From a virus: a stretch of DNA of 41,341 nucleotides. The position numbers and the translations under genes were made by a program. The notes under the pieces were generated by a model. It saw nothing but the letters and a program-made list of their open reading frames with translations, did no database searches and was not told the DNA's origin. Positions 171-39,362 of the stretch are shown one piece after another (the stretch's first letter is position 1; each line of letters opens with the position of its first letter). Where the stretch lies: UHGV virus genome UHGV-0069723; one strand, 5' to 3'.

Positions 171-1421
171 GTGCTTACCGATACAAAATTAAAAAACCTC
201 AAGCCGCAGGACAAACTGTACAAGGTTTCCGATCGTGACGGGCTGTATGTAGCTGTGCTTACGTCAGGCACGGTCTCGTTTCGCTATGACTACCGTATCA
301 ACGGTCGCCGCGAAACACTGGTAATCGGGCAGTATGGGCGTGACGGTATCAGCCTGGCAGAAGCGCGAGAAGAACTGATTGCTGCAAAGAAGCTGCTTAA
401 AGCAGGCCAGTCACCGGCTGCGGCTAAACGTGACGGTATCAAAAAGATTCGTGGTGCCGAGACGTTTGCGGTACATACCGACAGTTATATGAAACACGTC
501 ATCCTGGCTGACAGTACCCGCGCAATGAAACAGGCGGTGATCGACCGTGACATACTTCCGGTTCTTGGCAATAAAATGATGGCTGAAATTACCACATCGA
601 TGGTTCGTGATTTGTGTGACCGGATTGTCGAACGCGGTGGCCGGGCAACAGCAGTGCAGGCCAGGGAGATCATCAGTAGCGTATACCGTCACGCCAATGA
701 CCGTGGTCATGGTTTGTTTAATCCTGCGGCTGACATTAAACCTTCGTCTATCGCCATATTTAAACCACGAGAGCGAACACTGACACCAGAAGAAATTGGC
801 CTGTTCTTCCGCACGCTGGATGCCATTGGTGCTATGGGCACTATGAAAATGGCTTTAAAACTGGTGCTTATCACTATGGTTCGTAAGGGCGAATTCACCA
901 ATGCAACGTGGGATGAAATAGATTTTAAAAAATGGACATGGACAATTCCTCCAGACCGCATGAAGGGAAGCCGGGCGCACGTTATTTACCTGCCTAAACA
1001 GGCACAGGATATATTGGTCGGGTTGCAGATGTGCGCTGGTGGAAGTGAATATCTGGTTCCTGGTCGTTACAATATCCGGAAGCCATTATCTAATGCCGCG
1101 CTGAACTCTCTGATCGACAGAACGGTGAAAATAATAAATGAAGATGGTGAGCATATTCAGGACTTCACTGTACATGATATGCGCCGTACAGCCAGTACGT
1201 TGTTGCATGAGGCTGGTTATCCTTCAGACTGGATTGAAAAGGCTCTGGCACATGAGCAGAAAGGTGTGCGCGCCGTATATAACAAAGCGGAATACGCCAG
1301 ACAGCGCGCCTACATGTTGCAGCAGTGGGCCGATATGATTGATTCATGGATTGACGGGGAGCATACGGATCTGATTCCGTTCTCCCCGTCGAAGTTTGAG
1401 AAGTGGATGGCGGGGGAATAA
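171..1421 (+). CDS. int: Tyrosine-type site-specific integrase (P4-like, arm-binding N-terminal domain)
   Basis: 416 aa ORF with GTG start; N-terminus MLTDTKLKNLKPQDKLYKVSDRDGLYVAV...FRYDYRINGRRETLVIGQYG typical of P4-family integrases; C-terminal HDMRRT box and conserved Tyr region; sits next to the attL-type repeat. Confidence 0.9.
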   Translation: MLTDTKLKNLKPQDKLYKVSDRDGLYVAVLTSGTVSFRYDYRINGRRETLVIGQYGRDGISLAEAREELIAAKKLLKAGQSPAAAKRDGIKKIRGAETFAVHTDSYMKHVILADSTRAMKQAVIDRDILPVLGNKMMAEITTSMVRDLCDRIVERGGRATAVQAREIISSVYRHANDRGHGLFNPAADIKPSSIAIFKPRERTLTPEEIGLFFRTLDAIGAMGTMKMALKLVLITMVRKGEFTNATWDEIDFKKWTWTIPPDRMKGSRAHVIYLPKQAQDILVGLQMCAGGSEYLVPGRYNIRKPLSNAALNSLIDRTVKIINEDGEHIQDFTVHDMRRTASTLLHEAGYPSDWIEKALAHEQKGVRAVYNKAEYARQRAYMLQQWADMIDSWIDGEHTDLIPFSPSKFEKWMAGE

Positions 1422-1615
1422 CGTTTAATAGTTCTGCTGATTTTCTTCCATCTCTGCTTCTGCTGCCAGTGATTCAATTTTGTTTTCGAATATTGCTGAC
1501 AGTGTTGCAAATTCAGCATCAGTGACAGCGGGAATTGGAACAAACCTGATCCCGCTGTGTGCAAGCATGTTTGCAGTTTCAAGGCATTTTCTTAAATCTG
1601 CTGGTGATGCCCTGT

Positions 1616-2266
1616 TCATGCAGCACGCTCCCGCCCCTGGATGTCTGTTGGTGACAGCGGAGCATTGCTGAATGCATTTGTTAATCCGCCAATATCCAAC
1701 GCGTATCCAGGGTGTAGTTGCACTGCCGGGTCTTCGCACTGATTACCCCAAACATCGAAGCCATGAGACGTCTGGCGGGCGAACAGTTCAATGCGAGAAA
1801 CATCGCCTAATAATTGCACAAGTTTTTCACGAACGATATCTGGCTTTCTTGAATGCTCAAGCCGCGGTGCGGTAAATGACTGAACGATCCCTGCATTAAT
1901 GCGCGTAGGTAGTTTTCCCTTTACCGCAAACAGGCAATCTTCACTATTGGCGCGAGTCATGTGTCCCATACCCATAACCAGTTTATCTGGTTGTCGACTA
2001 CCACATTTTATCCACGTGAAGCCCTTCATCGTCATCAGACGGAATCCCCAGGCTTCAACAACTTTTAGTGCTTCGAGTGGTTGTGTTGGCACCCACCACA
2101 TGGCCAACAGACAGTTTTCATCGGCCAAATCCCACACAGGAAGGCGGCAGATATCCAGCACACTCATAACCGGATATTTAAAACCGGCACCGCGATTACC
2201 ATCTGCGGCTTTGTCCCGGTATACCCAGGGTGGATCTGCATAGATTAGTGTGTATTTCTTAGTCAT
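1616..2266 (-). CDS. MT-A70 family N6-adenine DNA methyltransferase
   Basis: Motif YADPPW near the N-terminus (MTKKYTLIYADPPWVY); ATG at 2266 preceded by GGGGTGG RBS; the track ORF extends to a GTG at 2278. C-terminal 30 aa look low-complexity. Confidence 0.8.
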   Translation of the reverse strand: MTKKYTLIYADPPWVYRDKAADGNRGAGFKYPVMSVLDICRLPVWDLADENCLLAMWWVPTQPLEALKVVEAWGFRLMTMKGFTWIKCGSRQPDKLVMGMGHMTRANSEDCLFAVKGKLPTRINAGIVQSFTAPRLEHSRKPDIVREKLVQLLGDVSRIELFARQTSHGFDVWGNQCEDPAVQLHPGYALDIGGLTNAFSNAPLSPTDIQGRERAA

Positions 2267-2558
2267 AAACCACCCCACAACATCCTATGCCGCTATAGTC
2301 GCCACGGCGAAGGCCGTTACCTTTTGTGATACATTGGTCCCTGCGAACCGCGATCCTTGCACGTTCAACATCACCAGAAGCAACATCCATACACTGAAGC
2401 CAAAGGTGAGCGGCAATGCGGAATTGCCCTTTTTTCTCTCTTTCAATCGCGCGTTTTTCGATCTCTATCGCCGCAGGAGTAACGGCGACAATCTTTGACG
2501 GACTGCGCATTGAAACCTTATTCATGTGATATTTTTCAAGTCGGCTTAACTTTCTCAC
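2259..2558 (-). CDS. Hypothetical protein (early-left operon)
   Basis: 99 aa ORF same strand as flanking genes; stop overlaps the methyltransferase start by 8 nt; start codon uncertain (Met at 2558, 2525 or 2510). Confidence 0.5.
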   Translation of the reverse strand: MRKLSRLEKYHMNKVSMRSPSKIVAVTPAAIEIEKRAIEREKKGQFRIAAHLWLQCMDVASGDVERARIAVRRDQCITKGNGLRRGDYSGIGCCGVVYD

Positions 2559-2667
2559 TTAATCCAACCCTCTCTGAAAATTAATGCCAGCAGATAAAGC
2601 CATGCTGAAACAGAGGCCAGGAATAAGTACCATCCTGACCATTTGCTCCAGTGCCTTAGCAGCGCAC

Positions 2668-2965: not shown

Positions 2966-3988
2966 TTACTCGAATTCTGGACGCATATCGTTAAGCGTCA
3001 TCATGAATTTTTGGTGATATTCATCACCGAGCTTTTCAGCCATGGTGTTAATTTCATTTTCAGCGCGCTTGAACATCGTTTTTGCATCTTCAGCAGATGG
3101 ATCCAGGCTATTAAGTATCGCGATGATATATTCTCGAGCTTCTTCTCGTTCTGAATCTGAAATTGGCGACAGGTGTTGACGCTCATCGTCAACTACGGAA
3201 TATTCACCAGTGATAACAGCTGCGTTATCTTGGCTAAGTCCAGCTTCAGCGCGCTCATCCATAACAACAGCCTTCTGCATTTCAATAGAAACAGGAAGAT
3301 ATTTGAACAGTCGGCGAATTACTGTTTTTTTAGCCATCTCATCGAAGTGATCAACCCATGGGCCACTGCTACCGGCTTTGCTCAGTGCACGAACTTTCTC
3401 AACGTCTGCCCGGCTCATAACTTCAAATTGGACTCCGCCATCTTTCAGTCGTGCAACGGCGTAAACGTGCGTTAATTCTCCGCGGTCACCTGTTTCGCAA
3501 GGTAAATGCTCGAGCGTTTCTTCCAGGCCGTATGAGTAGCTGAATTTGTCGTTTGTATGTACGGTACGAGCCGAGATACTCAGGATCTGCCCAGAGCGGC
3601 GGGCAAGGTCAATCATTCCGCGATAGCCGATAATCAGCTGTGCTTCTGTAGATACGGTTTCCCATCTTCCATTTACTTTCTGGCGTTTGTCGAACGGTAT
3701 CAGGTAAGCGTGTCCAAGAGCTCCGCCTGGTTCAAGACCCAATTGGGCACATTGCATAATTGCCCCCAGGAAGCTGGCTTGGTCGCATGATGCAAGTTTT
3801 GGAACCTTTCTGATCTCTGTGGTTGCTATGCGCGCCAGACGGTCTGCTGTCATGTGCTTTGGAAGTGCCAAAGCCATCTGAGCTTTAATTTTTGGGTCTG
3901 CCAGAAGTCCGGCCAGAGTTGTTGGTTTCTCATTATGATGTGCAACTTGGTTACCGGTAGCCGCTGCCTTAAGTGCATTGATAGACAT
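2966..3988 (-). CDS. recT: RecT-family single-strand annealing recombinase
   Basis: 340 aa; RecT-like core (SFLGAIMQCAQLGLEPGG...AYLIPF...); immediately downstream of the YqaJ-type exonuclease gene. Confidence 0.9.
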   Translation of the reverse strand: MSINALKAAATGNQVAHHNEKPTTLAGLLADPKIKAQMALALPKHMTADRLARIATTEIRKVPKLASCDQASFLGAIMQCAQLGLEPGGALGHAYLIPFDKRQKVNGRWETVSTEAQLIIGYRGMIDLARRSGQILSISARTVHTNDKFSYSYGLEETLEHLPCETGDRGELTHVYAVARLKDGGVQFEVMSRADVEKVRALSKAGSSGPWVDHFDEMAKKTVIRRLFKYLPVSIEMQKAVVMDERAEAGLSQDNAAVITGEYSVVDDERQHLSPISDSEREEAREYIIAILNSLDPSAEDAKTMFKRAENEINTMAEKLGDEYHQKFMMTLNDMRPEFE

Positions 3989-3997: not shown

Positions 3998-4897
3998 TTA
4001 CTTCATTCTGAAGACGCGTTGTGTCGTTGTTGTTTTGAATTTTTCGAATAACTCAGGGTGTACTGACTGGAATAGCTTCTGGTCGAATCTGTTGCTGATC
4101 TGAGATTTCCATGTGCAGAGCGGCTTTCCGTCCAGGGTCAGGACTGAGTGCTCTTGCATGTACATCTTCAGCTTCTCTTCTGATATAGCTATTTCTTCTT
4201 CCAGTGATTTTCTGCGTGATTTCATGTCTCGTAGATCGTTGAATAGTGCGAGTGCCTTTCCGTCAGCCTCGATACTTGTCCCGGCATCTTTCTCAAACAT
4301 CAGCGATACATCGCTTACGCTGGTAGCTTCCGGCGGGTTAAGATTTTTCACTCGGTCCCAGAAAGCGATTTCTTTTTCTAAGATCGCCTGGATAGTTTCT
4401 TCATCACGCTCAACCCGATAGATTCGGAAGTCGTCGCCACCGATAAGCACACCGAAAACGCATACCTGTTTGTTTGTAACCATCAACCCGTGCATGGCCT
4501 GGGCCGTGTAATGCACAGGAATTGCATCTGTCTGGATTTCTCCCCATTCTTTGGCCTTGAACGGACTAACTGTTTTGATCTCAATGTTCTCGCCTGACGC
4601 TGCTTCTGCATCGATCTCAGCTGCAATAAAATCGTAATCACGGTGGATATAGCGGTTTCCGCGATGAACGATTTCCATCCCTGTTTCCTCAGAAAGCAGG
4701 TCTATTACGTATGGCTCCATACGCTGGCCACGCGTGAAAACTTTCTGCTTGCTTTGGTCTACTGGTTTGACACGTGGCTGGACCTTATCCAGATAAACCT
4801 CAAGCGGGGTGCGCCATGGGCTAATTCCAAGAATCCCTGCAACATCGCTTCCTCCGATGTATTTTGTTCTATCCATGATTCCAGCGTTCCGCATCAT
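3998..4897 (-). CDS. YqaJ-type (lambda Exo/RecE-like) recombination exonuclease
   Basis: 299 aa; N-terminal RTKYIGGSDVAGILGISPWRTPLEVY typical of the YqaJ viral recombinase nuclease domain; paired with recT. Start could be 4897 or the Met at 4876. Confidence 0.85.
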   Translation of the reverse strand: MMRNAGIMDRTKYIGGSDVAGILGISPWRTPLEVYLDKVQPRVKPVDQSKQKVFTRGQRMEPYVIDLLSEETGMEIVHRGNRYIHRDYDFIAAEIDAEAASGENIEIKTVSPFKAKEWGEIQTDAIPVHYTAQAMHGLMVTNKQVCVFGVLIGGDDFRIYRVERDEETIQAILEKEIAFWDRVKNLNPPEATSVSDVSLMFEKDAGTSIEADGKALALFNDLRDMKSRRKSLEEEIAISEEKLKMYMQEHSVLTLDGKPLCTWKSQISNRFDQKLFQSVHPELFEKFKTTTTQRVFRMK

Positions 4898-5193
4898 GCC
4901 GCGTCCCTCTGCCCATCAAGCTGATCCGCCAGATCCCAGCGCGCTATAATTGCCATTGCCTCGCGCCGGTAGGCATCCATCAGTTCTTCGAACTCAGGGC
5001 TGTCTTTAGCAGCCTCCAGCACTTCCTGACGAACGCCTTTGCCTGTTACAACGTCGAAAGTTGAGGACAGTTGATGAAGTCGGATGCTCTCAATCAGTTC
5101 AACTTGTCGGTCATATAGCTGTTCTGACAGGCGGTAGTCCTTGTCGAATGCCAGCATGATTTTTTGAAGATTTTTCTGCTGATTAACGTTCAT
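4894..5193 (-). CDS. Hypothetical early protein
   Basis: 99 aa from ATG 5193 (MNVNQQ...) with GGGAGGG RBS; stop overlaps the exonuclease start (ATGATG). Confidence 0.55.
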   Translation of the reverse strand: MNVNQQKNLQKIMLAFDKDYRLSEQLYDRQVELIESIRLHQLSSTFDVVTGKGVRQEVLEAAKDSPEFEELMDAYRREAMAIIARWDLADQLDGQRDAA

Positions 5194-5195
5194 TA

Positions 5196-5348
5196 TCAGC
5201 CCTCCCATATCTCATTATCGTTGGCTACATCGCGAGCTTCTTTGCTGACGAAAGCCCACTTAATGCCTTCCTGTAAGGTGCGGAACTTCCAGCTCATGAA
5301 TCCGCATGCAGTAACGCAGTACCAACCGTTGATGATTTTCCACTGCAT
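5196..5348 (-). CDS. Small hypothetical protein, first gene of leftward early operon
   Basis: Hand-translated 50 aa ORF (MQWKIINGWYCVTACGF...) not in the ORF track; GAGGT RBS 8 nt upstream; stop 2 nt before the next gene start. Confidence 0.4.
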   Translation of the reverse strand: MQWKIINGWYCVTACGFMSWKFRTLQEGIKWAFVSKEARDVANDNEIWEG

Positions 5349-5367
5349 AACTTGTTACCTCGGTCTG

Positions 5368-5444
5368 TTACCGTTGAGGTAATAATTATGCTTATTTGGT
5401 TTGGTGTCAATAGATATGAGTTAAAAAAATTACCCGTAAGGTAA
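5368..5444. promoter_or_regulatory. Left operator region: two perfect TTACC-N5-GGTAA sites (5368-5382, 5430-5444) flanking the leftward promoter
   Basis: TTACCGTTGAGGTAA and TTACCCGTAAGGTAA; on the minus strand a perfect TTGACA -35 (5405-5410) lies between them. Confidence 0.55.
5382..5410 (-). promoter_or_regulatory. Candidate sigma70 early-left promoter (PL-like)
   Basis: Minus-strand TTGACA, 16-17 bp spacer, TAATTA/ATAATT -10; about 35 bp upstream of the first leftward ORF. Confidence 0.4.
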
Positions 5445-5452
5445 TCTATCTG

Positions 5453-5480
5453 GCAATAAAAAAGCCGCCATGAGGCGGCT
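5453..5480 (-). terminator. Rho-independent terminator downstream of the repressor gene
   Basis: Minus-strand hairpin AGCCGCC-TCAT-GGCGGCT followed by TTTTTTATT. Confidence 0.6.
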
Positions 5481-5501
5481 TACTTACTGAAAAATATAGT
5501 T

Positions 5502-6086
5502 TTATTGTTTGCTTTTTTCGTTCTGGTTGATGACAAATTCAATGTAACTTTCGATCTTTGCTTTCTCGGTTTCGGGTAACAATGCGTAGCGCGAGCGGTC
5601 ATAGTTGATAGTCGCAGGGTCGTGCGGGTGAATCAGTAGTTCATATCCGTGACGCCCGAATGCGGATGCAACATTCTCCAGGGTGGAAATGGAAACGCTG
5701 ACCTCATTGTTTAACAGGCGACTGATTGTCACCTGGGCGACGCCGGATGCGCGGTGAAGTTTTCCCTGCGTTGAAAGGTCGCGGCTTTCGCTCATCCAGC
5801 GTTCCAGGTTGTGAGCCGCCAGCTGACCAATGTCGCTTGGGCCGACAGGCTGAAAACCTTCCTGAGAAAGCGAGCGATCGATATCAAGCCAGTTACGGGG
5901 TTTATTGGCGGCAGCTTCAATTTTTCGCGCAACCTGGTCGCCGATAACCTTCTTGCCAAGAGCCCAGCGGTTTACCAGATTTGCCTGAGTTCCAAGTTTT
6001 TCTGCCATCCGCGTCTGAACACCATTGAATTCACGGTCGATCAAGTCGTTGAGATTTTGCCTGCGGACGTCCTGGATACTTTTCAT
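5502..6086 (-). CDS. Prophage repressor candidate with two HTH domains and no S24 peptidase domain
   Basis: 194 aa; two XRE/Cro-C1-like HTH segments (QTRMAEKLGTQANLVNRWALG and ASGVAQVTISRLLNNE); divergent from the cro-like gene across an operator-bearing intergenic region. Confidence 0.7.
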   Translation of the reverse strand: MKSIQDVRRQNLNDLIDREFNGVQTRMAEKLGTQANLVNRWALGKKVIGDQVARKIEAAANKPRNWLDIDRSLSQEGFQPVGPSDIGQLAAHNLERWMSESRDLSTQGKLHRASGVAQVTISRLLNNEVSVSISTLENVASAFGRHGYELLIHPHDPATINYDRSRYALLPETEKAKIESYIEFVINQNEKSKQ

Positions 6087-6141: not shown

Positions 6142-6204
6142 TTACCCAACAGGTAAATGCACCTCATAGGTAACTATCCTTGATTTTTGTTACCTTATGG
6201 GTGA
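6142..6204. promoter_or_regulatory. Right operator cluster: three tandem TTACC-N5-GGTAA-type sites
   Basis: TTACCCAACAGGTAA (6142-6156, perfect), GCACCTCATAGGTAA (6159-6173, half-site), TTACCTTATGGGTGA (6190-6204, one mismatch); candidate -35 TTGATT at 6180-6185. Confidence 0.6.
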
Positions 6205-6240
6205 ATATTTATTATCTGAAATAAATATCAGGCAATAGCT

Positions 6241-6471
6241 ATGAGCGATAACGGACATTTCGATTTCAAAAAGCACTGGCTTGCACTTACTCCGGATGAG
6301 CGTGAAGCCTTCGCACAGGAAGCCGGAACGACGAGTCACTATATCCAGACTCACTTAACAGGTAAGCGCAAAATGCCAGGTAAGGTATTGATGAATGGGC
6401 TTTTTAAAGCCTGTAAAACAAGACAATGGCTGCGCTCAAAAGCAGAACTGGCATACTTCTTCTACTCATGA
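6241..6471 (+). CDS. Cro/CII-like HTH regulator (first rightward early gene)
   Basis: 76 aa; HTH-like segment FAQEAGTTSHYIQTHLTG; divergent from the repressor; followed by a terminator. Confidence 0.65.
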   Translation: MSDNGHFDFKKHWLALTPDEREAFAQEAGTTSHYIQTHLTGKRKMPGKVLMNGLFKACKTRQWLRSKAELAYFFYS

Positions 6472-6493
6472 TATCCATCCACAACCCTCTGTA

Positions 6494-6516
6494 GACCGCC
6501 ATCCGGCGGTCTTTTC
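6494..6516 (+). terminator. Rho-independent terminator after the cro-like gene (tR1-like)
   Basis: Hairpin GACCGCC-ATCC-GGCGGTC followed by TTTT. Confidence 0.6.
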
Positions 6517-6526
6517 ATATCTATTC

Positions 6527-6541
6527 GTACCTCAAAGGTAA
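6527..6541. promoter_or_regulatory. Operator-like site GTACC-TCAAA-GGTAA
   Basis: One mismatch from TTACC-N5-GGTAA; directly downstream of the cro terminator and upstream of the next gene. Confidence 0.4.
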
Positions 6542-6837: not shown

Positions 6838-7653
6838 ATGAGCAGACATGCAACAGATTGGGCCTGGGAGACAGATCCAGGTAGCTCGTCATTAAAGCTC
6901 ATACTGCTCTCGATGGCTGACAGAGCCGATGAATATAACCTCTGCTACCCCAGCATAGAACGCCTCGTTAAAGACACTTGCCTGAATAAAAAAACCGTGC
7001 AGGCCGGGCTTATATCGCTCATGAAAATGGGGCTTATTTCAGATACCGGAGAGAGAAAGGGTGCGACGAAAAGAGTGCGGGTTTTCTCTCTTAATATAAC
7101 CAAAAACGGGAACATTAAAGGCAACCGGGAAGGGGGTAATGAACCCGAAAACGGTAATGTTACCGAAAACGGGAATATACCCAAAAACGGGATGTTGAAT
7201 GATCCCAAAAACGGGATGTTGAATGATCCCAAAAACGGGATCCAGAACCAGTCATATAACCAGTCATTTAACCAAGAGAGGGAGAGCAGGACAAAAAGCG
7301 GGGATTCTGTGCCTCATGACCCCGGCGCAAACAACGCCGTGATGAATAACTTTGTTCCTCCTGGTGGGCCAGGGCAATTAGGCAAATTTGTCATGCATGA
7401 ACAATGGCAGCCATCAGATGACTTTCTTCGGAAAAGCTCATTGCAGGGGATCTACCTGGACAGTCTGCCAACGGCACAGGAGCTTGCAGAGTTCAGAATT
7501 TACTGGATGGCTGAGGGTAAGGCATACCATCAGGCACAGTGGGAGCAGAAGCTGGCAAGGCGGCTGCAGATTAGCAGACAGAAGCAATCAACATTACCTG
7601 ATAACAACGTTCCGCACTGGAACAGCCCTGAAGCGTGGGAGGATTTCTTGTGA
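6838..7653 (+). CDS. Replication initiator, lambda O-like (N-terminal winged-HTH) with internal origin iterons
   Basis: 271 aa; N-terminal LSMADRADEYNLCYPSIERLVKDTCLNKKTVQAGLISLMKMGLI...; central repetitive peptide (KNGN/PKNGM) coincides with DNA iterons; followed by a P-like gene. Confidence 0.75.
   Translation: MSRHATDWAWETDPGSSSLKLILLSMADRADEYNLCYPSIERLVKDTCLNKKTVQAGLISLMKMGLISDTGERKGATKRVRVFSLNITKNGNIKGNREGGNEPENGNVTENGNIPKNGMLNDPKNGMLNDPKNGIQNQSYNQSFNQERESRTKSGDSVPHDPGANNAVMNNFVPPGGPGQLGKFVMHEQWQPSDDFLRKSSLQGIYLDSLPTAQELAEFRIYWMAEGKAYHQAQWEQKLARRLQISRQKQSTLPDNNVPHWNSPEAWEDFL
7100..7239. repeat. Origin-type iterons (six copies of CC[CG]AAAAACGG[GT]) inside the O-like gene
   Basis: Copies at 7100, 7144, 7163, 7180, 7204, 7228; includes an exact tandem 24-bp duplication (7191-7214 and 7215-7238). 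Confidence 0.65.
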
Positions 7654-8435: not shown

Positions 8436-8472
8436 TACCAGCGCGATAGCGCATTTTTTTACGCCTTGATAG

Positions 8473-8549
8473 TTACCTTCTGGGTAACAAAGTATTCTAA
8501 ACTCTATTGATTTCGTGTCTTATGTGGTTTTTAATTACCTCAGGGGTAA
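8473..8549. promoter_or_regulatory. Two perfect TTACC-N5-GGTAA sites (8473-8487, 8535-8549) with candidate promoters
   Basis: TTACCTTCTGGGTAA and TTACCTCAGGGGTAA; TTGATA (8465-8470) and TTGATT/TTTAAT promoter-like hexamers interleaved; second site ends 3 nt before the ATG at 8553. Confidence 0.55.
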
Positions 8550-10112: not shown

Positions 10113-10114
10113 TA

Positions 10115-31291: not shown

Positions 31292-31299
31292 CATGTCAC
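31288..31299. repeat. 12-bp perfect palindrome GTGACATGTCAC (copy 3 of 3)
   Basis: Identical to copies at 11366 and 13631; overlaps the lipoprotein stop codon and abuts a terminator hairpin. Confidence 0.6.
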
Positions 31300-31325
31300 A
31301 GGCCGCTTTCGCGGCCTTGTTTTTA
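31300..31325 (+). terminator. Rho-independent terminator after the lipoprotein gene
   Basis: Hairpin AGGCCGC-TTTC-GCGGCCT followed by TGTTTTT. Confidence 0.6.
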
Positions 31326-31905: not shown

Positions 31906-31930
31906 ATAAGCCACCTAAACTGCGTAAAAT

Positions 31931-32794
31931 TTATTTTCTGCCACTTCTGTAGTATATGTTGCGACCATTTTTGGTCACATTAACAACATGACCCTTTGTT
32001 TCTACTTTGTTATTTGTTGCCTTATATACTTCAAAGTCAAACCATGATATATGACTTATTTCGTCTATAGATACCATAATTTCTAGACCTTGAACTTTCT
32101 TTTTGCTTATCCCTTTTATCGCAGCACTGCGCTTAATTTGGATTTCACCTGGGTAAGCGTTTGTAAATGTAACAGATAAATTTTCTTTGTTTCTGTACCC
32201 TGACATTAAAGGAACAAAAGATATGTGTTGGTGTGGCCCTTGATTTTCCGTTGGCTCACCAGAACCATTTATTATTCCAACGTATACTTTATTTGATGAT
32301 AAAGTAATTAACATTGGTTTCTTAGGATCTGATTCGATTGCATCAAGCAATAGCAAATCTAAAGAACCCTGGGAGTACGTTTTTCGCAATACCCTAGCTT
32401 TCATTGCCTCTGATATTTTGTCATAAATATCACGTTTATAAAAACAACCTAAAAGAAGATCTTTTAGCCAAACAAAAGATACATAACACAAAGAGAAGCA
32501 AATTGATGTGACTGACAGAAGAAGTAGCCACATGTAAATTCTATCTGTTTCTGGTTTTGACGTTACATTAAAAGTTTCCACCATATCGTGAACTAGGTGA
32601 AAATCAGGATATTTATATTTTATAAATGCGGCAATTATTACCGAAGCAACAAGGCAATATGTACCTAATGCAGCTACTTTCATATAAAGAAGCTGGCCTT
32701 CATGTCGGTATAAACGGAAATAATGATACTGGTTAGCGGTTATCATAATATAACCACTAACCAGAATGGGGATAATTAGAAGAGCTAACAACAC
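31931..32794 (-). CDS. Polytopic membrane protein with C-terminal soluble domain (cassette gene B)
   Basis: 287 aa; three to four hydrophobic segments in the first ~125 aa; probable GTG start overlapping gene A's stop by 1 nt; visibly AT-rich; no motif I recognise. Confidence 0.65.
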   Translation of the reverse strand: MLLALLIIPILVSGYIMITANQYHYFRLYRHEGQLLYMKVAALGTYCLVASVIIAAFIKYKYPDFHLVHDMVETFNVTSKPETDRIYMWLLLLSVTSICFSLCYVSFVWLKDLLLGCFYKRDIYDKISEAMKARVLRKTYSQGSLDLLLLDAIESDPKKPMLITLSSNKVYVGIINGSGEPTENQGPHQHISFVPLMSGYRNKENLSVTFTNAYPGEIQIKRSAAIKGISKKKVQGLEIMVSIDEISHISWFDFEVYKATNNKVETKGHVVNVTKNGRNIYYRSGRK

Positions 32795-33003
32795 TATTTC
32801 CTTACAGTGGCAAGATCCTGTTTAACGATTGCAGCAGCGAGACGACGCATCTCCTTAACCTCAGGAAGCTCAGAAATTTGCTGTGATGAGATATACACAC
32901 CACCACGCTTGTTAACCTGCGCTGACGCCGGAACTTCTGCATTTTTTGCCTGAGGGCTGGGTGCATTATCCCTCGTTTTTGTACGAGCGAACCAAAATCC
33001 CAT
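32794..33003 (-). CDS. Small hypothetical protein (cassette gene A)
   Basis: 69 aa; strong GGAGGAGA RBS; ordinary GC unlike B and C; promoter-like TTGCAG-17-TACTAT and an operator site directly upstream. Confidence 0.5.
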   Translation of the reverse strand: MGFWFARTKTRDNAPSPQAKNAEVPASAQVNKRGGVYISSQQISELPEVKEMRRLAAAIVKQDLATVRK

Positions 33004-33029: not shown

Positions 33030-33044
33030 TTACCTTTAAGGTAA
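33030..33044. promoter_or_regulatory. Perfect TTACC-N5-GGTAA site overlapping the cassette promoter -10/+1
   Basis: TTACCTTTAAGGTAA on the plus strand; on the minus strand it abuts the TACTAT -10 candidate (33044-33049). Confidence 0.5.
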
Positions 33045-33114: not shown

Positions 33115-33810
33115 TCAGAAGAACCCTGCTTTGTCGTTGATGTATTCCGCGTGGGTCTGGATATCACGCAGGCATTTACTCACACCGACGATGTAGCAGA
33201 ACATGGTGGTCAGCTCCGCCGCCGCGCCCGATACGTCGTGCCCGTCGTCCTGTAACTGGTTCAGCAGATTCATCAGCAGTGAGTTCTCCGTCAGGCCGAG
33301 AACACCAGACGGCGAGTGAATCAGGCTGCGGTAGCCGGGCTTCAGCGGGGCGCTGTAGGTTTTGTTCTCTATCTTCATCGCCTGCATTACTGCTGACGCC
33401 GTGGCGTTGGCTACCTGGTCGGCAACCATCTTTATGCGTTCTTCCTGCGGGAGCGAGTTTTTAATGTAACTTCCGGTGCGGCGGATCTGAGGAAGTACTT
33501 CGCCTGTAACCCATTTGCGAAAGCGGTAGGGGATAGTGCCTGGTGTCACCGCATCGCGGCAGCGGAGGATCAGTGTGTAGAGGCCTGACTCGGAGATGAT
33601 GATCGATTCTTGCTCACCGCCAGGGGTGTCGGTTGAAGCGACGCCCTTCTCATCATCATCAAGTTTTCGAACAGCATCTCGATGGTTTGCTATGCCTATA
33701 GCCCGACAAACATCTGAAGCGATAAACCATGGCTCACCATTAATGACGATTACCCGTATATCGGCTTGGGATTCGAAAGAAAAAATGGACGTGCTTTTTG
33801 TAGCTGTCAT
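33115..33810 (-). CDS. Bro-N domain antirepressor-like protein
   Basis: 231 aa; N-terminal FSFESQADIRVIVINGEPWFIASDVCRAIGIANHRDAVRKLDDDEK...GLYTLILRC...WVTGEVLPQIRRTGSY fits the Bro-N pattern; C-terminal domain is paralogous to the small ORF at 34126-34383. Confidence 0.85.
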   Translation of the reverse strand: MTATKSTSIFSFESQADIRVIVINGEPWFIASDVCRAIGIANHRDAVRKLDDDEKGVASTDTPGGEQESIIISESGLYTLILRCRDAVTPGTIPYRFRKWVTGEVLPQIRRTGSYIKNSLPQEERIKMVADQVANATASAVMQAMKIENKTYSAPLKPGYRSLIHSPSGVLGLTENSLLMNLLNQLQDDGHDVSGAAAELTTMFCYIVGVSKCLRDIQTHAEYINDKAGFF

Positions 33811-34079
33811 AGTGGTTACCTTTTAGTCTGGTTAATCACCACTACCGACGCCAATCGGTTGGTGGTGAACTGTGCAGGGTTGGCGTAACCGGCTAAAAGG
33901 ACCCGGCGCACCTTTCGGTGCCCCCACACAGCCCACCATAATACGAATGTGGCCGTGCTATACGCATAAAAAAACCGCTTGCGCGGTGAATGCGCCTTTT
34001 AGTAATCCGGGACGCCAATCCCGGCACTGGATTTTGCCAGTGCCCGATTACTATGGCACAAGAGGAGTGCGATGTAAAT

Positions 34080-34094
34080 TTACCGCAAAGGTAA
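34080..34094. promoter_or_regulatory. Perfect TTACC-N5-GGTAA site upstream of the Bro-N gene
   Basis: TTACCGCAAAGGTAA, within the ~315-bp untranslated region between the two antirepressor-type genes. Confidence 0.45.
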
Positions 34095-34125: not shown

Positions 34126-34383
34126 TTATCTGGTTTGTTTTCGTAATTGTTCGGCACAATAGTCGAGATGTGTTTGTAGATCCTGCATAGACATCTGTGA
34201 GCTGGTGACGTAGTTAATCAGTGCAGTCAGTTCGGCAAGTGGGCCATCGACATTAAATCCATCCTTATCGAGATCCCGGAGTAATTTCATCAAGTGCGAT
34301 CCCTCCACCAGTGACCTGACGCCTCCCGGCGTGTGAATCCTTTCGGTAAATCCGTCTTCCAGTGGATAGTGATACTGCTGCAT
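34126..34383 (-). CDS. Small antirepressor-like protein (paralog of the Bro-N protein C-terminal domain)
   Basis: 85 aa from ATG 34383 (MQQYHYPLEDGF...); HTPGGVRSLVEGSHLMKLLRDLDKDGFNVDGPLAELT...DLQTHLDYC aligns with HSPSGVLGLTENSLLMNLLNQLQDDGHDVSGAAAELT...DIQTHAEYI of the Bro-N protein; LexA box in its promoter. Confidence 0.6.
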   Translation of the reverse strand: MQQYHYPLEDGFTERIHTPGGVRSLVEGSHLMKLLRDLDKDGFNVDGPLAELTALINYVTSSQMSMQDLQTHLDYCAEQLRKQTR

Positions 34384-34404
34384 CTTATCTTCTCCATGTA
34401 ATAA

Positions 34405-34420
34405 CTGTATATTTATACAG
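34405..34420. promoter_or_regulatory. LexA (SOS) box CTGTATATTTATACAG
   Basis: Matches CTGT-N8-ACAG with an AT-rich spacer and perfect dyad symmetry; 22 bp upstream of the small antirepressor-like ORF, overlapping its likely -10. Confidence 0.7.
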
Positions 34421-34459
34421 TAGCAAATAATTTGTTTGCTATCCAGCACGTTTTGCAAA

Positions 34460-34474
34460 TTACCCGAAAGGTAA
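34460..34474. promoter_or_regulatory. Perfect TTACC-N5-GGTAA site upstream of the LexA-boxed promoter
   Basis: TTACCCGAAAGGTAA, about 40 bp distal to the LexA box. Confidence 0.45.
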
Positions 34475-34578
34475 TATCTATTCGTATTTACAGTCTTTCT
34501 ATCCATATGTGGTTTTTCAGGTAATAGAATAACCAGATATGCGGCGCAACGGGTGCTGCGACTATCTGGAGATTTAAC

Positions 34579-37335
34579 ATGACGGTCTCAACCGAAGTTG
34601 ACCACAACGAATACACAGGTAACGGAGCTACGACATCATTTCCGTATACCTTCCGTATTTTCAAAAAATCCGACCTGGTTGTTCAGGTGTCTGACCTGAA
34701 CGGGAACGTAACAGAATTGGTTCTGGATACCGGTTATACGGTAACAGGGGCGGGCACTTATAGTGGCGGTTCTGTTGTTCTTCCGTCGCCGCTTGCTGCT
34801 GGATGGCGAATTACGATAGATCGTGTGCTTGATGTGGTGCAGGAGACTGATCTTCGTAATCAGGGAAAATTTTTCCCCGAGGTGCATGAAGATGCCTTTG
34901 ACTATCTGACGATGCTGATCCAGCAATGTTTTGGATGGTTCAGACGTGCATTGATGAAACCATCTTTGCTTGCAAAATATTACGATGCAAAGCAAAACAA
35001 AATTTCTAACCTTGCAGATCCATCACTTGAGCAGGATGCTGTAAATAATCGATCAATGCGCAATTATGTTGATGCTGCAATCGCCGGAGTTGTTGGTGGT
35101 TTTGGTTGGTTTATTCAGTATGGTTCTGGAGCAGTATACCGAACGTTCCAGGATAAGATGCGGGATAACGTTAACGCTCTTGATTTTGTTCCGTTTGAGC
35201 AAAGATATGCTGCATTAAATTTTGAAGTTGATGCGTCTGAATGGTTAATTAATGCGATAAATTCTGGTGCAAGTGTCGTTAGAATACCTGCAGGTAAATG
35301 GATGATTTCTAAGAACATAGATGTGCCTCCTGGAGTGTCTTTAATTGGTGATGGCATTGATTATTGGGATACATATAGACCAGCGCCTGAAAGATTATTA
35401 AAAAGTTGGAGTAAAGGAACCCATCTTGTATTTACTGGTGATGGAGAAAAAAACAAATATTTTTTTAACATCTCTAATGAAAGACCAGTTAAAATTGTTG
35501 AAGGGATATCTTGTAAGTTCACTGAGTTTACAAATGAAGATTCTGTAGGTGTTACTCCTGCTACACCAAAAGCCATGAGCGTAGCTGTTAGTATCAACAG
35601 GGCATCACAGTTACGCAACCTGAGAATAATGGTAAGTAAAAATGGTATTGAAGGATACAATAACCCTGATTCTTATTCATTGGGTGATGACTGGGATATA
35701 GGGTTGCATGTATACGATAGCTGTGATTCAGTTATTGATAACGTACAGATTGTCGGCTATTGGAGGGTAAAAGGACTACTACTGACAGAAAATGACGGGA
35801 GCCTTTCAATGAAGGGAAATCCTGAAAAAACGCACTTTAATAACGTTTATGTCCAGTCAGGGATCGCGATAAGGAATAGCCCTCAGATTGATCTTGTAAG
35901 TAATACTGAAAGCTCAGTGACATTTAAACATAAAAAGTCGATGAGAATAACTTCAGTTAAACAGTTTAAAATTGCTGGCAGTGAATCAGTATATACGTAT
36001 TCAGATGCATCATTTGATGGAGCTAACATCACACTATCTGGTATTTCTCCTGAAATACAAGGTACAATAAGTGTAATCAGGTTTCCGTCAATTGGTAATA
36101 ATTTTAGCGGGACTGTTTTTGAGAATACAGTAGCCACTACTCTTGATCATACATCAGGTAAGCCATCAGAATACTTTGGCCTTCCTGCATCCTTTGCATT
36201 AGAGGTTGATGGTTTCCCTGTTCGTAATTTAAGGTTTGATAAATTCAAAGCTCAAACAACATTTGATAAAGGAAATTGCATTTTTGGTGATTGCCGTGAT
36301 GTTAAAATAACATCATCTGAGTTTGAAAATGGAATTATGATTGCGTATAACCAGACCGAGACTCAGGGTTATACAGGAAATCTTAGATTTTTTGCTTCTG
36401 ATCTTCAGAGCAGCGTTAACACAAGTGAGTTTAAACCAAGAGACGCATTTGTAGACAATAGACAAATAAAAACGGAGTTTACTGATGGTTCGTTCATTAT
36501 AAAGAACTGGAGGCCTACAGATACAAAAATACAATGGTCGTCTGGAGCAGATGCTATTGTTCTTAGAGAGTCACCTGACGAACAATCAGACGGAAATATT
36601 TACGGGTATCACATTGATGGTAAAAGATGGATTAATGTTAGTGGATATAACAAAGATATAAATATTTCATCAAGAAACTTAAGCGTAAAAAACCATGGTG
36701 ATGACTCTGCAGTTATTAATATATTCGGCGACTCTGGAAATATTGCCATTAAAGGTAATTTTTCACCAATTATTGATAACAGCAAATCTCTTGGTGCACC
36801 ATCATTTAGATGGGCACAGGTTTATTCTGCGAACGGTTCGATAAACACATCAGATGGTAGAGAAAAAAGTGAACCGATTAGTACAAGTGAGCTCAGCTTG
36901 TATATGTCTCGTGGTTATGAAGGTGATGCAATTCTGGATGCATGGGGAGATATCAGGATTGTAGCTTTTCGCTGGCTTGATGCCGTCAGGGAAAAGGGAG
37001 ATGGTGCCCGCTGGCATTTTGGTGTTATAGCACAACAAGTGAGAGACACTTTCCTCGCGCATGGGATTGATGGAACCAGATTTGGCCTTCTCTGTTACGA
37101 TGAATGGGATGATAAATACGCGCCAGTGATGGCGGTAAGGATGATCACTAAAGTTGTGGATGGCGTCGAAATTGAGATGGAAGAAGAATACGAAACAGAA
37201 GAGCGAACTCTGGTTTGCAAGGCTGGAAATAGGTGGGGTATCCGTACTGACCAGTGTTTATGGCTTGAGTCAGCTTATTTGCGTAGAAGAATCGAAAAAA
37301 TAGAATCACGTCTTGCAATGCTTGAAAGTAGCTAA
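34579..37335 (+). CDS. Tailspike / tail fibre with C-terminal intramolecular chaperone (peptidase S74-type) domain
   Basis: 918 aa; conserved-looking N-terminal head-binding region; visibly AT-rich central region (~35200-36850); C-terminal ...SDGREKSEPISTSELSLYMSRGYEGDAILDAWGDIRIVAFRW... resembles the self-cleaving chaperone-of-endosialidase domain. Confidence 0.85.
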   Translation: MTVSTEVDHNEYTGNGATTSFPYTFRIFKKSDLVVQVSDLNGNVTELVLDTGYTVTGAGTYSGGSVVLPSPLAAGWRITIDRVLDVVQETDLRNQGKFFPEVHEDAFDYLTMLIQQCFGWFRRALMKPSLLAKYYDAKQNKISNLADPSLEQDAVNNRSMRNYVDAAIAGVVGGFGWFIQYGSGAVYRTFQDKMRDNVNALDFVPFEQRYAALNFEVDASEWLINAINSGASVVRIPAGKWMISKNIDVPPGVSLIGDGIDYWDTYRPAPERLLKSWSKGTHLVFTGDGEKNKYFFNISNERPVKIVEGISCKFTEFTNEDSVGVTPATPKAMSVAVSINRASQLRNLRIMVSKNGIEGYNNPDSYSLGDDWDIGLHVYDSCDSVIDNVQIVGYWRVKGLLLTENDGSLSMKGNPEKTHFNNVYVQSGIAIRNSPQIDLVSNTESSVTFKHKKSMRITSVKQFKIAGSESVYTYSDASFDGANITLSGISPEIQGTISVIRFPSIGNNFSGTVFENTVATTLDHTSGKPSEYFGLPASFALEVDGFPVRNLRFDKFKAQTTFDKGNCIFGDCRDVKITSSEFENGIMIAYNQTETQGYTGNLRFFASDLQSSVNTSEFKPRDAFVDNRQIKTEFTDGSFIIKNWRPTDTKIQWSSGADAIVLRESPDEQSDGNIYGYHIDGKRWINVSGYNKDINISSRNLSVKNHGDDSAVINIFGDSGNIAIKGNFSPIIDNSKSLGAPSFRWAQVYSANGSINTSDGREKSEPISTSELSLYMSRGYEGDAILDAWGDIRIVAFRWLDAVREKGDGARWHFGVIAQQVRDTFLAHGIDGTRFGLLCYDEWDDKYAPVMAVRMITKVVDGVEIEMEEEYETEERTLVCKAGNRWGIRTDQCLWLESAYLRRRIEKIESRLAMLESS

Positions 37336-37564
37336 ATATTGAGGATTAATCTTAGTAGCCGGCTTGCTTATTACGAAGTAAGTTCGGCTTCTTTCTTCTT
37401 TAATTGTGACTGAGAGGTACACTAGACCATTTTCTGAACGAAATTTTCATTGCCGTAGAAGGTAGAAATACAGCGTTTTGAGGTAACTATTATCCTTAAA
37501 TGGTTTATTATGTGTGAATCTTCAATAGTAAGGAGATTGTTATGCGTAATAAACGGTGTTCATT

Positions 37565-37969
37565 ATGTCAGCCCATCTAACTACTGATTCTTTAAATCAA
37601 TGGCTTAGTGTGAGCTCTCTTGCTGCAGTTATCGTAGGCGTTCCGCCAGAGGTGGCGCTCGGTGCTCTTGCTGGTGCGGTAATTTTTGTTACCTCTGCGG
37701 TAGAGTACCCAATTCATCGTCGCGTACTCTTATCGATGCTTAGCTTTCTCTGTGGACTTCTTTTCTACAAACCAGCAGCATCAATTCTTATCGGCATAGC
37801 CAGCCTGATCCCTACCATCACGCAGGACTCTTTTGAAAAAGGGATTGTTTTCTCTGCTGGCGCATTCGTGTCAGCAATTGTCGCTGTGCGTATTGGTATA
37901 TGGCTCTACCACCGTTCAGACAATCCACGCGATTTAATTCCGGGGAGAAAAGACGATGGTAACGCATGA
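37565..37969 (+). CDS. Holin-like polytopic membrane protein
   Basis: 134 aa from ATG 37565 (track ORF starts at GTG 37556); several hydrophobic segments; first gene of the lysis cassette. Confidence 0.5.
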   Translation: MSAHLTTDSLNQWLSVSSLAAVIVGVPPEVALGALAGAVIFVTSAVEYPIHRRVLLSMLSFLCGLLFYKPAASILIGIASLIPTITQDSFEKGIVFSAGAFVSAIVAVRIGIWLYHRSDNPRDLIPGRKDDGNA

Positions 37970-38264
37970 GTTTTTTTTGCTTATCACCAATGCAGTTATT
38001 TGTACTGGCATAGCAATTCGCGTTGTCACATTCCGGCGTAACGGCTCTCAACATCGAAGATGGGGAGGGTGGCTTGCTTATTTCCTTATTGTTGCTGCGG
38101 CCAGTATTCCTGTTCGTGTCGTCTATGCAATCTGGTTACGCACGCCAATGGCTGTGGATTTATCTGAGGTCATTATCAACGCTGTCATGCTTGCCGCGGT
38201 TATTAAAACACGCGGTAACGTTGTTCAGATTTTCAAAATATCGAGGTCTAAACATGGAGATTAA
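37956..38264 (+). CDS. Holin-like / antiholin-like membrane protein
   Basis: 102 aa, about three hydrophobic segments; GGGAGAA RBS; overlaps neighbours at both ends. Confidence 0.5.
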
Positions 38265-38883
38265 ACAATTCCAGCGAGCTGCTGGTATTAGCGAGGCGCT
38301 GGCCGCACGCTGGTTCTCGCATATAACTTCTGCGATGAAAGAGTTTGGTATCAGCAAAGCAGAAGATCAGGCAATGTTTATTGCTCAAGTCGGGCATGAG
38401 TCTGGGGGCTTCACCAGGTTGCAGGAGAATTTCAACTACAGTGTCAGCGGACTGGCTAACTTCGTTCGGGCTGGGCGTCTCACTCAGGGGCAGGCTAATG
38501 CACTGGGTCGCCATGCTGGTGAACCACCATTGCCACTCGAGCGCCAGCGAGCGATTGCCAATCTGGTGTACAGCAAACGCATGGGGAACAATGCCCCCGG
38601 CGATGGCTGGAATTACCGTGGCCGCGGACTTATCCAGATTACCGGTTTGAATAACTATCGTGATTGCGGAAACGGCCTGAAAGTGGACCTGCTGGAGAAT
38701 CCTGAACTGTTGGCGCAGGACGAATACGCGGCTCGTAGCGCGGCGTGGTTCTTCTCCAGCAAAGGTTGCATGAAGTATACCGGCGATATTGCACGTGTAA
38801 CTCTGATTATCAATGGTGGCAGGAATGGCATCGACGACCGGCGCGCGCGGTACGTCACTGCCAGTAAGGTGCTGGCGGTATGA
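38254..38883 (+). CDS. Endolysin, glycoside hydrolase family 19 (chitinase-like)
   Basis: 209 aa from ATG 38254 with GAGG RBS; [13 protein letters not shown] and [15 protein letters not shown] match GH19 motifs; the track ORF (38023-38883) is extended upstream through the second holin-like gene. Confidence 0.85.
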
Positions 38884-39362
38884 TCTGGGCATTCGTAAAA
38901 GCATACTGGAAACAGTTGATTATCGTGGCAGTGCTTGCTGTTCTGGTCATATCAGGAGTTGTTGCCTGGAATGTACACGGTAGCCGTCAGTACGACGCCG
39001 GGTATGCGCAGGCGAAAGAAGACTGCAAAGCCGAAGAAGAAAAAGTTCGTCAGTACTACGAACAGGAGAAAGTGACCAATGAACGTGAAGCTCAGCAGAG
39101 GATCGACCAGGCGCGCAATGATGCTCTTGATGCTGCCGCTCGCGCTGGCCGGTTGCAGCAACAGCTCGTTGCCATCCGTGAGCAGCTCAGGCACTATAAC
39201 GCCATTGTCGGCGCTGGGTCGTCAGCCGCAGACACCGGAGTTTTGCTTGCCGACGTGTTCAGCAAATCTCTCGAGAGAAATAGACAACTGGCAGAGTATG
39301 CTGACCGGGCAGCCGAAGCCGGAAGAGTCTGCGAAAAACAGTACGACACCCTGACCAGATAG
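38880..39362 (+). CDS. Rz-like inner-membrane spanin (i-spanin)
   Basis: 160 aa; N-terminal membrane helix then charged coiled-coil; start overlaps the endolysin stop. Confidence 0.7.
39079..39354 (+). CDS. Rz1-like outer-membrane lipoprotein spanin embedded in Rz (+1 frame)
   Basis: ORF wholly inside Rz in another frame; lipobox LALAGC after a basic n-region; Pro/Ser-rich mature part; exact start uncertain. Confidence 0.5.
   Translation: MNVKLSRGSTRRAMMLLMLPLALAGCSNSSLPSVSSSGTITPLSALGRQPQTPEFCLPTCSANLSREIDNWQSMLTGQPKPEESAKNSTTP

Follow-up and report, generated by a model that had tools for sequence, protein, structure and literature searches.

UHGV-0069723 is a viral genome record of 41,341 nucleotides, the whole of which is referred to here as the window. 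It is an integrated temperate Uetakevirus prophage of the epsilon15/phiV10 type at the guaA–yfgI junction of Escherichia coli. Early genes of lambdoid appearance are followed by late genes in podovirus order, and neither a Q nor an N antiterminator can be recognized. The window as a whole is best explained—at a probability of roughly 0.7—by a Uetakevirus prophage whose late operons are under direct repressor control and which uses no antitermination of the Q or N type. This reading draws on a dispersed 15-bp operator and on a repressor/anti-repressor switch; beside them stands the last early gene, which encodes a small protein of ribbon-helix-helix (RHH) fold and ends in a 12-bp palindrome. 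Early and late genes were called by profile searches against Pfam and PHROGs.

Repressor, operators and anti-repressor modules

The repressor gene, the operators and the terminators and leaders associated with them are the following.

5502-6086, minus strand: prophage repressor of the SPC32H Rep type (full-length match to PDB 5d50_A, E=1.7e-41; HTH_3)
114-128: operator-like site upstream of the integrase gene, one mismatch, from the operator search
5352-5481, minus strand: PL-like region with promoter TTGACA-17-AATTAT at 5410-5382 and operators at 5368-5382 and 5430-5444
5481-5462, minus strand: terminator after the repressor gene (-18.3 kcal/mol, z=-6.5)
6142-6215, plus strand: PR/PRM-like region with operators at 6142-6156 and 6190-6204 and promoter TTGTTA-17-TATTAT
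6493-6512, plus strand: terminator after cro (-15.0 kcal/mol, z=-5.1)
6527-6541: operator after the cro terminator, one mismatch
Within 8441-8549, plus strand: terminator after the P gene, GCGCGATAGCGC and a run of seven T (-8.4 kcal/mol; phiV10 annotates a terminator at the equivalent position)
Within 8441-8549, plus strand: conserved TTGATT...ATGTGGTTTTTAAT block before the next gene block
8473-8487 and 8535-8549: operators after the P-gene terminator
11419-11444, plus strand: terminator before terS (-16.2 kcal/mol, z=-4.1), followed by a U-rich tract
11448-11456, plus strand: TG-n-TACTAT, an extended -10-like element before terS that overlaps the first operator
11456-11470 and 11474-11488: two operators before terS
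13607-13626: hairpin/terminator after terL
14601-14615: operator before the virion operon
14601-14705, plus strand: leader of the virion operon, …TGTCAA…CATATGTGGTTAAATTGGTAATAATTTAATT…, nearly invariant across the genus
31300-31317 and T-run, plus strand: terminator after the virion operon (-16.5 kcal/mol; the fold takes in a palindrome stem)
33030-33044, no strand: operator 27 nt upstream of the leftward cargo operon
34050-34094, minus strand: promoter and operator of the Bro-N/Ant module
34460-34474: operator in the divergent ant/tailspike region

The operator TTACC-N5-GGTAA occurs at 15 sites with at most one mismatch, 10 of them exact; 0.62 sites are expected, and none of 100 shuffled sequences reaches 15. 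Leaving aside one match within a holin gene, the sites form five groups: at the PL-like and PR-like promoters; directly 3' of the terminators behind cro, P and the Q-position gene; before the virion operon; before the leftward cargo operon and the RNA-gated ant module; and in the divergent ant/tailspike region. Four relatives carry 8–11 exact copies each at homologous places, and the reference record of epsilon15 has 'repressor' sites marked at PL, behind the replication genes and ahead of terS, portal operon and tailspike alike. The dispersed operator, already proposed by the first-pass annotation from the letters alone, is hence real, yet at the level of annotation it is prior knowledge. The records of the relatives likewise annotate terminators at the same junctions as in the window. 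The block of terminator, 11 nt, operator, operator and terS—including TG-n-TACTAT—is kept in five genomes that span the E. coli phages, epsilon15 and Tyrion. Three rightward leaders, namely those after the P gene (8520-8549), of the portal operon (14656-14690) and of the tailspike (34503-34530), have an element CATATGTGGTT(T/A)...GGTAAT in common, located about 30–45 nt 3' of the first operator; this might be a core promoter or a target of some other factor. The motif ATATGTGGTT by itself is not significant in the window (5 versus 2.6 expected), and its support lies in positional conservation across genomes.

The anti-repressor modules lie between the cargo operon and the tailspike.

33115-33810, minus strand: Bro-N/Ant fusion (PHROG Ant families; C-terminal domain against 5d50_E, E=1.9e-13)
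33858-33943, minus strand: C4 antisense RNA (Rfam RF01695, 77.7 bits at a gathering score of 45)
33968-34043, minus strand: IsrK-like RNA (Rfam RF01394, 77.9 bits)
About 34126-34383, minus strand: small SPC32H-type ant (PHROG 450/1760)
34403-34422, minus strand: LexA box before the small ant, AACTGTATATTTATACAGTA (2 mismatches to the 20-mer consensus, 0 expected)

The LexA box and the operator region, which is shared with the tailspike promoter, are conserved in epsilon15 and Tyrion. PMC9638917 describes SPC32H Rep as a tetramer on palindromic sites that is disassembled by a tetrameric Ant. In phage ZX5, over-expression of either the repressor or the anti-repressor shifts the balance between lysis and lysogeny (PMC9782041). 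The arrangement suggests induction through a LexA-controlled anti-repressor of the SPC32H type, a route that the first-pass annotation had missed. The C4 and IsrK-like RNAs stand side by side upstream of the Bro-N/Ant gene, that is, an RNA gate of the P1/Gifsy type inside a podovirus prophage.

The last early gene and its palindrome

Searches by hidden Markov model (HMM), by sequence and by fold recovered no Q or N, in line with the earlier annotation. The HMM search that it had called for among the open reading frames (ORFs) at 8553-11369 was run and found no antiterminator family in Pfam (E<=0.1), NCBIfam or PHROGs; in particular, these ORFs include no member of the Q families Q-lambda (PF03589), Q82 (PF06530) and Q21 (PF06323) at E<=0.1. 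The small ORFs adjoining PL and PR match no antiterminator in Pfam, NCBIfam or PHROGs, and a PDB sequence search for antiterminator likeness came back empty. An N-like role of the first ORFs behind PL (5196-5348 and 4894-5208) was considered and rejected: they are not Arg-rich, match no known family and fall into PHROGs without an assigned function. The leaders at PL and at PR each measure only about 30 nt, and the terminator scan found no strong terminator inside the PL operon. The position that Q holds in lambda is occupied by another gene, which is accompanied by the palindrome GTGACATGTCAC.

11028-11369, plus strand: Q-position gene of the epsilon15 gp49 family (ATG at 11031, 112 aa), encoding what is called here the RHH-Zn protein
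11366-11377, no strand: palindrome 1, GTGACATGTCAC, overlapping the TGA stop of the RHH-Zn gene
13631-13642, no strand: palindrome 2, GTGACATGTCAC, between terL and a convergent ORF (13647-14003, minus strand)
31288-31299: palindrome 3, GTGACATGTCAC, overlapping the stop of a lipoprotein-like ORF and abutting the terminator at 31300-31317

The RHH-Zn protein features a strand-helix-helix (RHH) fold followed by a C-terminal Cys knuckle, and has the look of a DNA-binding dimer whose small knuckle holds a metal. Its homologs include epsilon15 gp49, phiV10 p55 and TL-2011b gp20, and the family is labelled 'transcriptional regulator' in RefSeq and in PHROG 536; the protein itself matches no family in Pfam or NCBIfam. 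A total of 772 homologs was found (about 148 clusters at 50% identity), none of them named. Foldseek against the PDB and BFVD returned nothing useful and no likeness to Q-lambda, Q82 or Q21. By sequence and fold, the protein is neither Q-like nor N-like. In Uetakeviruses its gene invariably closes the early set, with terS next in line. Members of the family are likewise seen in an N15-like element beside a true Q21-type antiterminator (PF06323), behind gpA in a P2/186-like prophage and immediately upstream of gemA/mor in a Mu-like prophage, so that the family does not serve solely as a substitute for Q. The family profile gives weak matches to the RNA-polymerase-binding zinc-finger proteins TraR and YbiI (E=0.03-0.05). 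Kinship of the C-terminal half with TraR/DksA was retained as no more than a weak lead, there being no PF01258 match and the Cys pattern being C-x2-C...C-x-C...C against C-x2-C-x17-C-x2-C. Homology to MatP was rejected (hhalign probability 0.2%, with a MatP sequence entered by hand).

Three exact copies of the 12-mer stand against about 0.003 expected in the window (4^-12 per position). Epsilon15, at about 78% identity, has it at the same three places (39612, 2142 and 19517), the last preceding its annotated terminator at 19531-19556. Palindrome 1 is conserved in epsilon15, Tyrion and TL-2011b, and the position of palindrome 2 is shared by epsilon15 (2142), phiV10 (2262) and Tyrion (2702). Among 80 viral loci, 78 have the palindrome at the stop codon of the gene, and the other two loci end there. 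GTGAC-N2-GTCAC was further found in five of nine independent divergent loci, whose family members are 31–43% identical, with about 0.05 expected in 54 kb. All five sites lie in or beside the gene—two on the TGA stop, one 15 bp before the start and two inside its 3' part—and come from unrelated phage types including a Mu-like prophage (L087, 4354; L093, 588; L088/L089, 306; L091, 4352; L092, 3224). In the Mu-like members the site is embedded as the conserved peptide VTGH. Because gene and palindrome co-occur, they form a cassette, and judging from these sequences the RHH-Zn protein probably binds GTGAC-N2-GTCAC. The 12-mer is annotated in no record and appears in no searchable paper; as far as could be found, an RHH and Cys-knuckle gene in the Q position with such a palindrome seems previously undescribed. 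The first-pass annotation had passed over this gene, which is a candidate for a conserved regulator with a DNA site of its own.

Two other origins of the palindrome were examined and rejected: the three copies are not a duplicated segment, their flanks being unrelated, and an RNA hairpin is unlikely, with a stem of merely 4 bp in the folds. The N15-like element L085, whose family member is without a GTGAC site, carries a different palindrome, GTGGGACCATGGTCCCAC, at 1804-1817 after its Q gene and at 7479-7496 with a T-run before its holin gene; this may be a plain terminator or a site of changed specificity.

The interval between palindrome 1 and the terS terminator varies. In 33 of 78 relatives it holds an ORF of 70 aa (MPKIRYDLEDMRD...; for example at about 4357-4570 in L012), of which the window keeps the last ~35 nt as a remnant at 11378-11418 that by chance makes a promoter-like pair of hexamers. 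The spacer accordingly measures 23 nt in epsilon15, 41 nt in the window and about 227 nt where the ORF is inserted. The terS block lies at most 220 nt from the palindrome in 45 of the 78 informative viral loci; in L012, the sole one read of the other 33, it stands behind the inserted ORF. A lambda PR'-like promoter at 11366-11395 (GTGACA-18-CATGAT) was rejected, since neither its -10-like hexamer nor its spacing is kept in epsilon15 and Tyrion and the spacer is the ORF remnant.

The prophage, its relatives and its other genes

The prophage and the adjoining host DNA are delimited as follows.

1-39489, no strand: integrated Uetakevirus prophage (BLAST identities; the right end is the att core)
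39473-39489, plus strand: attachment (att) core, attR, ATTGAGTGGGAATGATT, occurring once in the window (core sequence from PMC9782041)
39490-41341, no strand: host chromosome with yfgI, yfgH and yfgG, matched by every one of the 5,426 complete E. coli genomes

With the att core at 39473-39489 and host yfgI-yfgH-yfgG beyond it, the window therefore represents an integrated prophage. Its left end nearly coincides with the start of the window, and 1.85 kb of host DNA follow attR. In ZX5 the core ATTGAGTGGGAATGATT is placed at the 3' end of guaA (PMC9782041). The reference record of TL-2011b (NC_019445) also runs into host DNA, at 41360-43105; its gp54-gp56 correspond to yfgI, yfgH and yfgG of E. 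coli, with the homolog of yfgH carrying the label 'DNA methyltransferase'.

The two halves of the window were compared by BLAST with 50,697 phage records. The E. coli phages phiv142-3, PAS61, TL-2011b and phiV10 share 95.5–98% nucleotide identity over 42–85% of each half, and ZX5 and HEMP4 are also among the close E. coli relatives (96–98% over 65–85% of the query). The Salmonella phages epsilon15, PAT1 and 65FD are about 78% identical. The records of phiV10, epsilon15 and Tyrion carry Uetakevirus taxonomy, and the gene order from int to the lysis genes agrees with five annotated Uetakeviruses (epsilon15, phiV10, TL-2011b, Tyrion and ZX5). The order tested, namely int, recombination, rep/cro, O/P, accessory genes, gp49-like gene, terS/terL, portal to internal proteins, tailspike and lysis, is present in the window, and dozens of viral contigs likewise match it over early and late genes. 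ZX5, a 97% identical relative, has a short tail by electron microscopy (PMC9782041). Of the 5,426 complete E. coli genomes, 639 (about 12%) contain the junction from the Q-position gene to terS; prophages of this type are very common in E. coli.

The early genes comprise the following, together with an AlpA-type excisionase confirmed by Pfam/PHROGs and six iterons inside the O-like gene at 7092-7244.

171-1421, plus strand: tyrosine integrase (PF00589, PF13356)
1616-2278, minus strand: MT-A70 methylase (Pfam)
2259-2558, minus strand: PerC-like ORF (Pfam)
2966-3988, minus strand: RecT (PF03837, E=4e-57)
3998-4897, minus strand: YqaJ-type exonuclease (PF09588, E=1e-23)
6241-6471, plus strand: cro-like gene (PHROG 35 repressor family)
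6838-7653, plus strand: O-like initiator (HTH_36 and DnaT domains)
7635-8435, plus strand: lambda P homolog (PF06992, E=1.5e-56)
8553-11038, plus strand: variable accessory ORFs—DUF1064/resolvase-like, Ead/Ea22-like and unknowns (Pfam, PHROGs, NCBIfam)

The late region contains the following genes.

11491-12084, plus strand: terS (PF03592; annotations of relatives)
12081-13556, plus strand: terL (annotations of relatives)
13647-14003, minus strand: convergent ORF 3' of terL
14202-14278, minus strand: tRNA-Arg(UCU) (ARAGORN; Rfam tRNA 74.6 bits)
14706-30691, plus strand: virion operon (PF12236; PHROGs)
14927-16606, plus strand: T7-type portal (PF12236, E=2e-187)
16896-17597, plus strand: protease/scaffold-like ORF (protease in PHROG 458 and RefSeq records)
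19807-20412, plus strand: tail tubular A (PHROGs)
20412-22883, plus strand: tail tubular B (PHROGs)
22883-30691, plus strand: two small and three large internal virion proteins (PHROGs)
30875-31291, plus strand: lipoprotein-like ORF at the end of the virion operon
34579-37335, plus strand: single tailspike (PHROG 1171, E=2.5e-300)
37556-39362, plus strand: lysis cassette with two holins, GH19 endolysin and Rz/Rz1 (PF16931, PF05449, PF00182; PHROG 312)
38254-38883, plus strand: GH19 endolysin (PF00182, E=1.5e-9)

For terS the ATG at 11491 is most likely the start, rather than the TTG at 11410. The virion operon encodes, in addition to the portal, a small ORF, the protease/scaffold-like protein, the major capsid protein, decoration-like ORFs, tail tubular proteins A and B and the internal proteins. 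Situated in the stretch from terL to the portal operon, the tRNA-Arg(UCU) is encoded antisense to the late genes; the same tRNA exists unannotated in phiV10 and TL-2011b, where a 'hypothetical protein' coding sequence overlaps it, and is absent from epsilon15 and Tyrion. The tailspike has a guanine-cytosine (GC) content of 0.38-0.41, and its module diverges from phiV10, as seen from gaps in BLAST coverage. Behind it, 37336-37555 is a gap of 220 bp, where phiV10, TL-2011b, Tyrion and epsilon15 carry an O-antigen acetyltransferase or other seroconversion genes. A leftward cargo operon of low GC content (0.376) extends from 33003 to 31402 with three genes of 68, 286 and 169 aa, which yield one weak nucleoside deoxyribosyltransferase-like Pfam match. 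PADLOC finds no defence system among these cargo genes and the RHH-Zn protein.

The first-pass annotation had read this genome as lambdoid early functions joined to a podovirus-type virion module. Its gene content stands in Pfam and PHROGs: RecT, YqaJ, the O/P-like genes and the in-gene iterons on the early side, and on the late side podovirus order with two tail tube proteins, three large internal proteins, one tailspike and a GH19 endolysin. Two labels hold in part. The 'scaffold' ORF at 16896-17597 exists, but is filed as a protease (PHROG 458, RefSeq), and the 'nin-like' ORFs at 8553-11038 are so by position but not by content, as the list above indicates. The view of a noteworthy hybrid does not hold, since whole-genome comparison (BLAST) and gene order make this layout normal for a Uetakevirus.

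Late gene control and known systems

Nearly every transcription unit opens with one or two 15-bp operators that overlap promoter-like elements, and therefore a single SPC32H-type repressor would hold all units off directly in the lysogen. The units headed in this way comprise terS-terL, the operon from portal to injection proteins, the tailspike and the operons of both anti-repressor modules. The rightward early operon is cut by terminators after cro, after P and before terS, and regulation would proceed without antitermination of the Q or N type. DNA damage would remove LexA from the box before the small ant, Ant would take the repressor off the DNA, and all units would be released; the second, Bro-N-fused Ant gene would be gated by the C4/IsrK-type RNAs. 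Occupancy of the sites, separate promoters for the late units and this order of events we infer from the homology of the parts and from the number, positions and conservation of the sites. The first-pass annotation had considered direct control of the late genes by a repressor or activator, and the operators before the late operons fit control by a repressor.

Several points weigh against this reading. Simultaneous de-repression leaves the timing of early and late genes unexplained, and a strong terminator before terS together with a conserved regulator-like gene also has the look of an antitermination switch. A sigma-70 scan gives no promoter before terS or the portal operon; the elements there are weak by consensus and were identified by eye. 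Upstream of the lysis cassette, matches to the operator are merely half-site-like in the window, and the match at 37689 inside a holin gene is probably due to chance. Co-occurrence is the sole ground for taking the palindrome as a target of the RHH-Zn protein.

The RHH-Zn protein would be an accessory DNA-binding factor that may tune read-through or insulation at operon boundaries, not an analogue of Q. Some part of it in early/late control is possible and is put forward tentatively. More specifically, the gp49-family protein and its sites might constitute an undescribed boundary device at 3' ends that sets how far transcription crosses from early to late genes, which is a doubtful proposal; such a device could act as a roadblock, by controlling termination or by looping the DNA between its three sites, and could provide Q-like timing in Uetakeviruses.

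Expression of the late genes by leaky read-through from PR, with no dedicated factor and with the downstream operators as roadblocks in the lysogen, is unlikely. In its favour, the U-tracts of the terminators after cro and P are short or interrupted or their stems weak (-8.4 kcal/mol after P), every late operon follows PR in the same orientation, and the sigma-70 scan gives no good promoter before terS or the portal operon. However, the terminator before terS is strong and followed by a U-rich tract, the operators overlap conserved -10-like elements instead of taking arbitrary positions, and the tailspike and lysis units stand behind leftward blocks, so that about 3 kb of antisense genes would have to be crossed.

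The RHH-Zn protein as an activator of late promoters after de-repression, in a role like that of P1 Lpa, P2 Ogr or Mu C, is improbable too. Its DNA-binding fold, its conserved place at the early/late boundary and the label 'transcriptional regulator' in PHROG and RefSeq agree with this role, and late promoters that are weak by sigma-70 consensus may need help. Yet its sole conserved candidate sites are at 3' ends and not upstream of the portal, tailspike or lysis operons, the CATATGTGGTT...GGTAAT element of the three leaders is unrelated to the palindrome, and the family is found in phages that already have known late activators.

Very doubtful is the RHH-Zn protein as a new Q-like antiterminator that loads on RNA polymerase at palindrome 1 and crosses the terminator at 11419-11444. 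The constant place of the gene as the last early gene before terS in Uetakeviruses, the strong terminator between the two with palindrome 1 upstream of it, and the weak TraR/YbiI profile matches (E ~0.03-0.05) speak for it. The fold, however, is that of a DNA-binding RHH protein with no homology to Q or N, the Cys spacing is unlike that of DksA/TraR fingers (and PF01258 is not matched), and the promoter-like GTGACA-18-CATGAT is not conserved, its spacer being the remnant of the 70-aa ORF. Palindrome 3 closes the late operon, and antitermination from there would give rise to antisense transcripts; the family also occurs in N15-like elements with a true Q and in Mu- and P2-like phages with late regulators of their own. 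That the genome is a recent and unusual lambdoid–podovirus recombinant is hardly credible: RecT, YqaJ, lambda P and Ead/Ea22 families are common to lambdoid phages and early segments are shared with many Stx-phage records, but the full early and late arrangement recurs in epsilon15, phiV10, TL-2011b, Tyrion, dozens of viral contigs and about 12% of complete E. coli genomes, as an old combination that defines the genus.

With direct repressor control as the preferred reading, the layout of lambdoid early and podovirus late genes and the absence of Q and N are traits of the genus and no discovery. The operator network and the Rep/Ant switch are already on record as well; a literature search on late genes of Uetakevirus returned nothing. 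Serotype-converting phages of Salmonella and O157 belong to the group. As a candidate contributor to early/late timing, the RHH-Zn protein with its operon-end palindromes holds the most promise. If read-through or insulation proved to be under its control, it would represent a transcription-boundary factor of a new type in phages, present in Mu-like, P2-like and N15-like phages, too.

Compared with its closest relatives, the E. coli Uetakeviruses and epsilon15, the window agrees in operator motif and positions, in the att core at guaA, in the Q-position gene and in the palindromes. It differs in the body of the tailspike, in the accessory set at 8553-11038, in the low-GC cargo operon at 31402-33003, which is present in the window, and in having merely 220 bp and no O-antigen acetyltransferase between tailspike and lysis genes. 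RecT and the exonuclease are separate genes here, whereas phiV10 is annotated with a fusion.

Lambda with Q, PR' and tR' resembles the window in that a small gene ends the early rightward operon and is followed by an intrinsic terminator and then by the late genes. In contrast to lambda, the gene in the window has no homology to Q and not its fold, no conserved promoter or pause lies between gene and terminator, and repressor operators stand downstream of the terminator. The matS site of E. coli is GTGACRNYGTCAC, with 13 bp. Compared with MatP/matS, the site described here has a spacer of 2 bp instead of 3 (a 12-bp site), and the protein carries a Cys knuckle in place of the four-helix bundle/coiled coil; this is a resemblance only.

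Phages P1 and P7 possess a C1 repressor with many scattered operators, an immI region with a C4 antisense RNA and ant, and the late activator Lpa. The likeness to the window consists in one repressor, operators before many operons, a C4 RNA upstream of ant and the lack of an N/Q cascade; as in immI, the C4 RNA of the window is upstream of an anti-repressor gene on the same strand. Unlike P1/P7, the window has an unrelated repressor, a symmetric operator and unrelated virion and replication modules, and no Lpa homolog was detected in it. The SPC32H switch (PDB 5d50, 5d4z) and the window are alike in a full-length homolog of Rep, the Ant domain, the LexA box before the small ant and palindromic operators. 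Unlike SPC32H, this prophage features two genes with an Ant domain, one of which is fused to Bro-N and placed behind RNAs of the C4/IsrK type.

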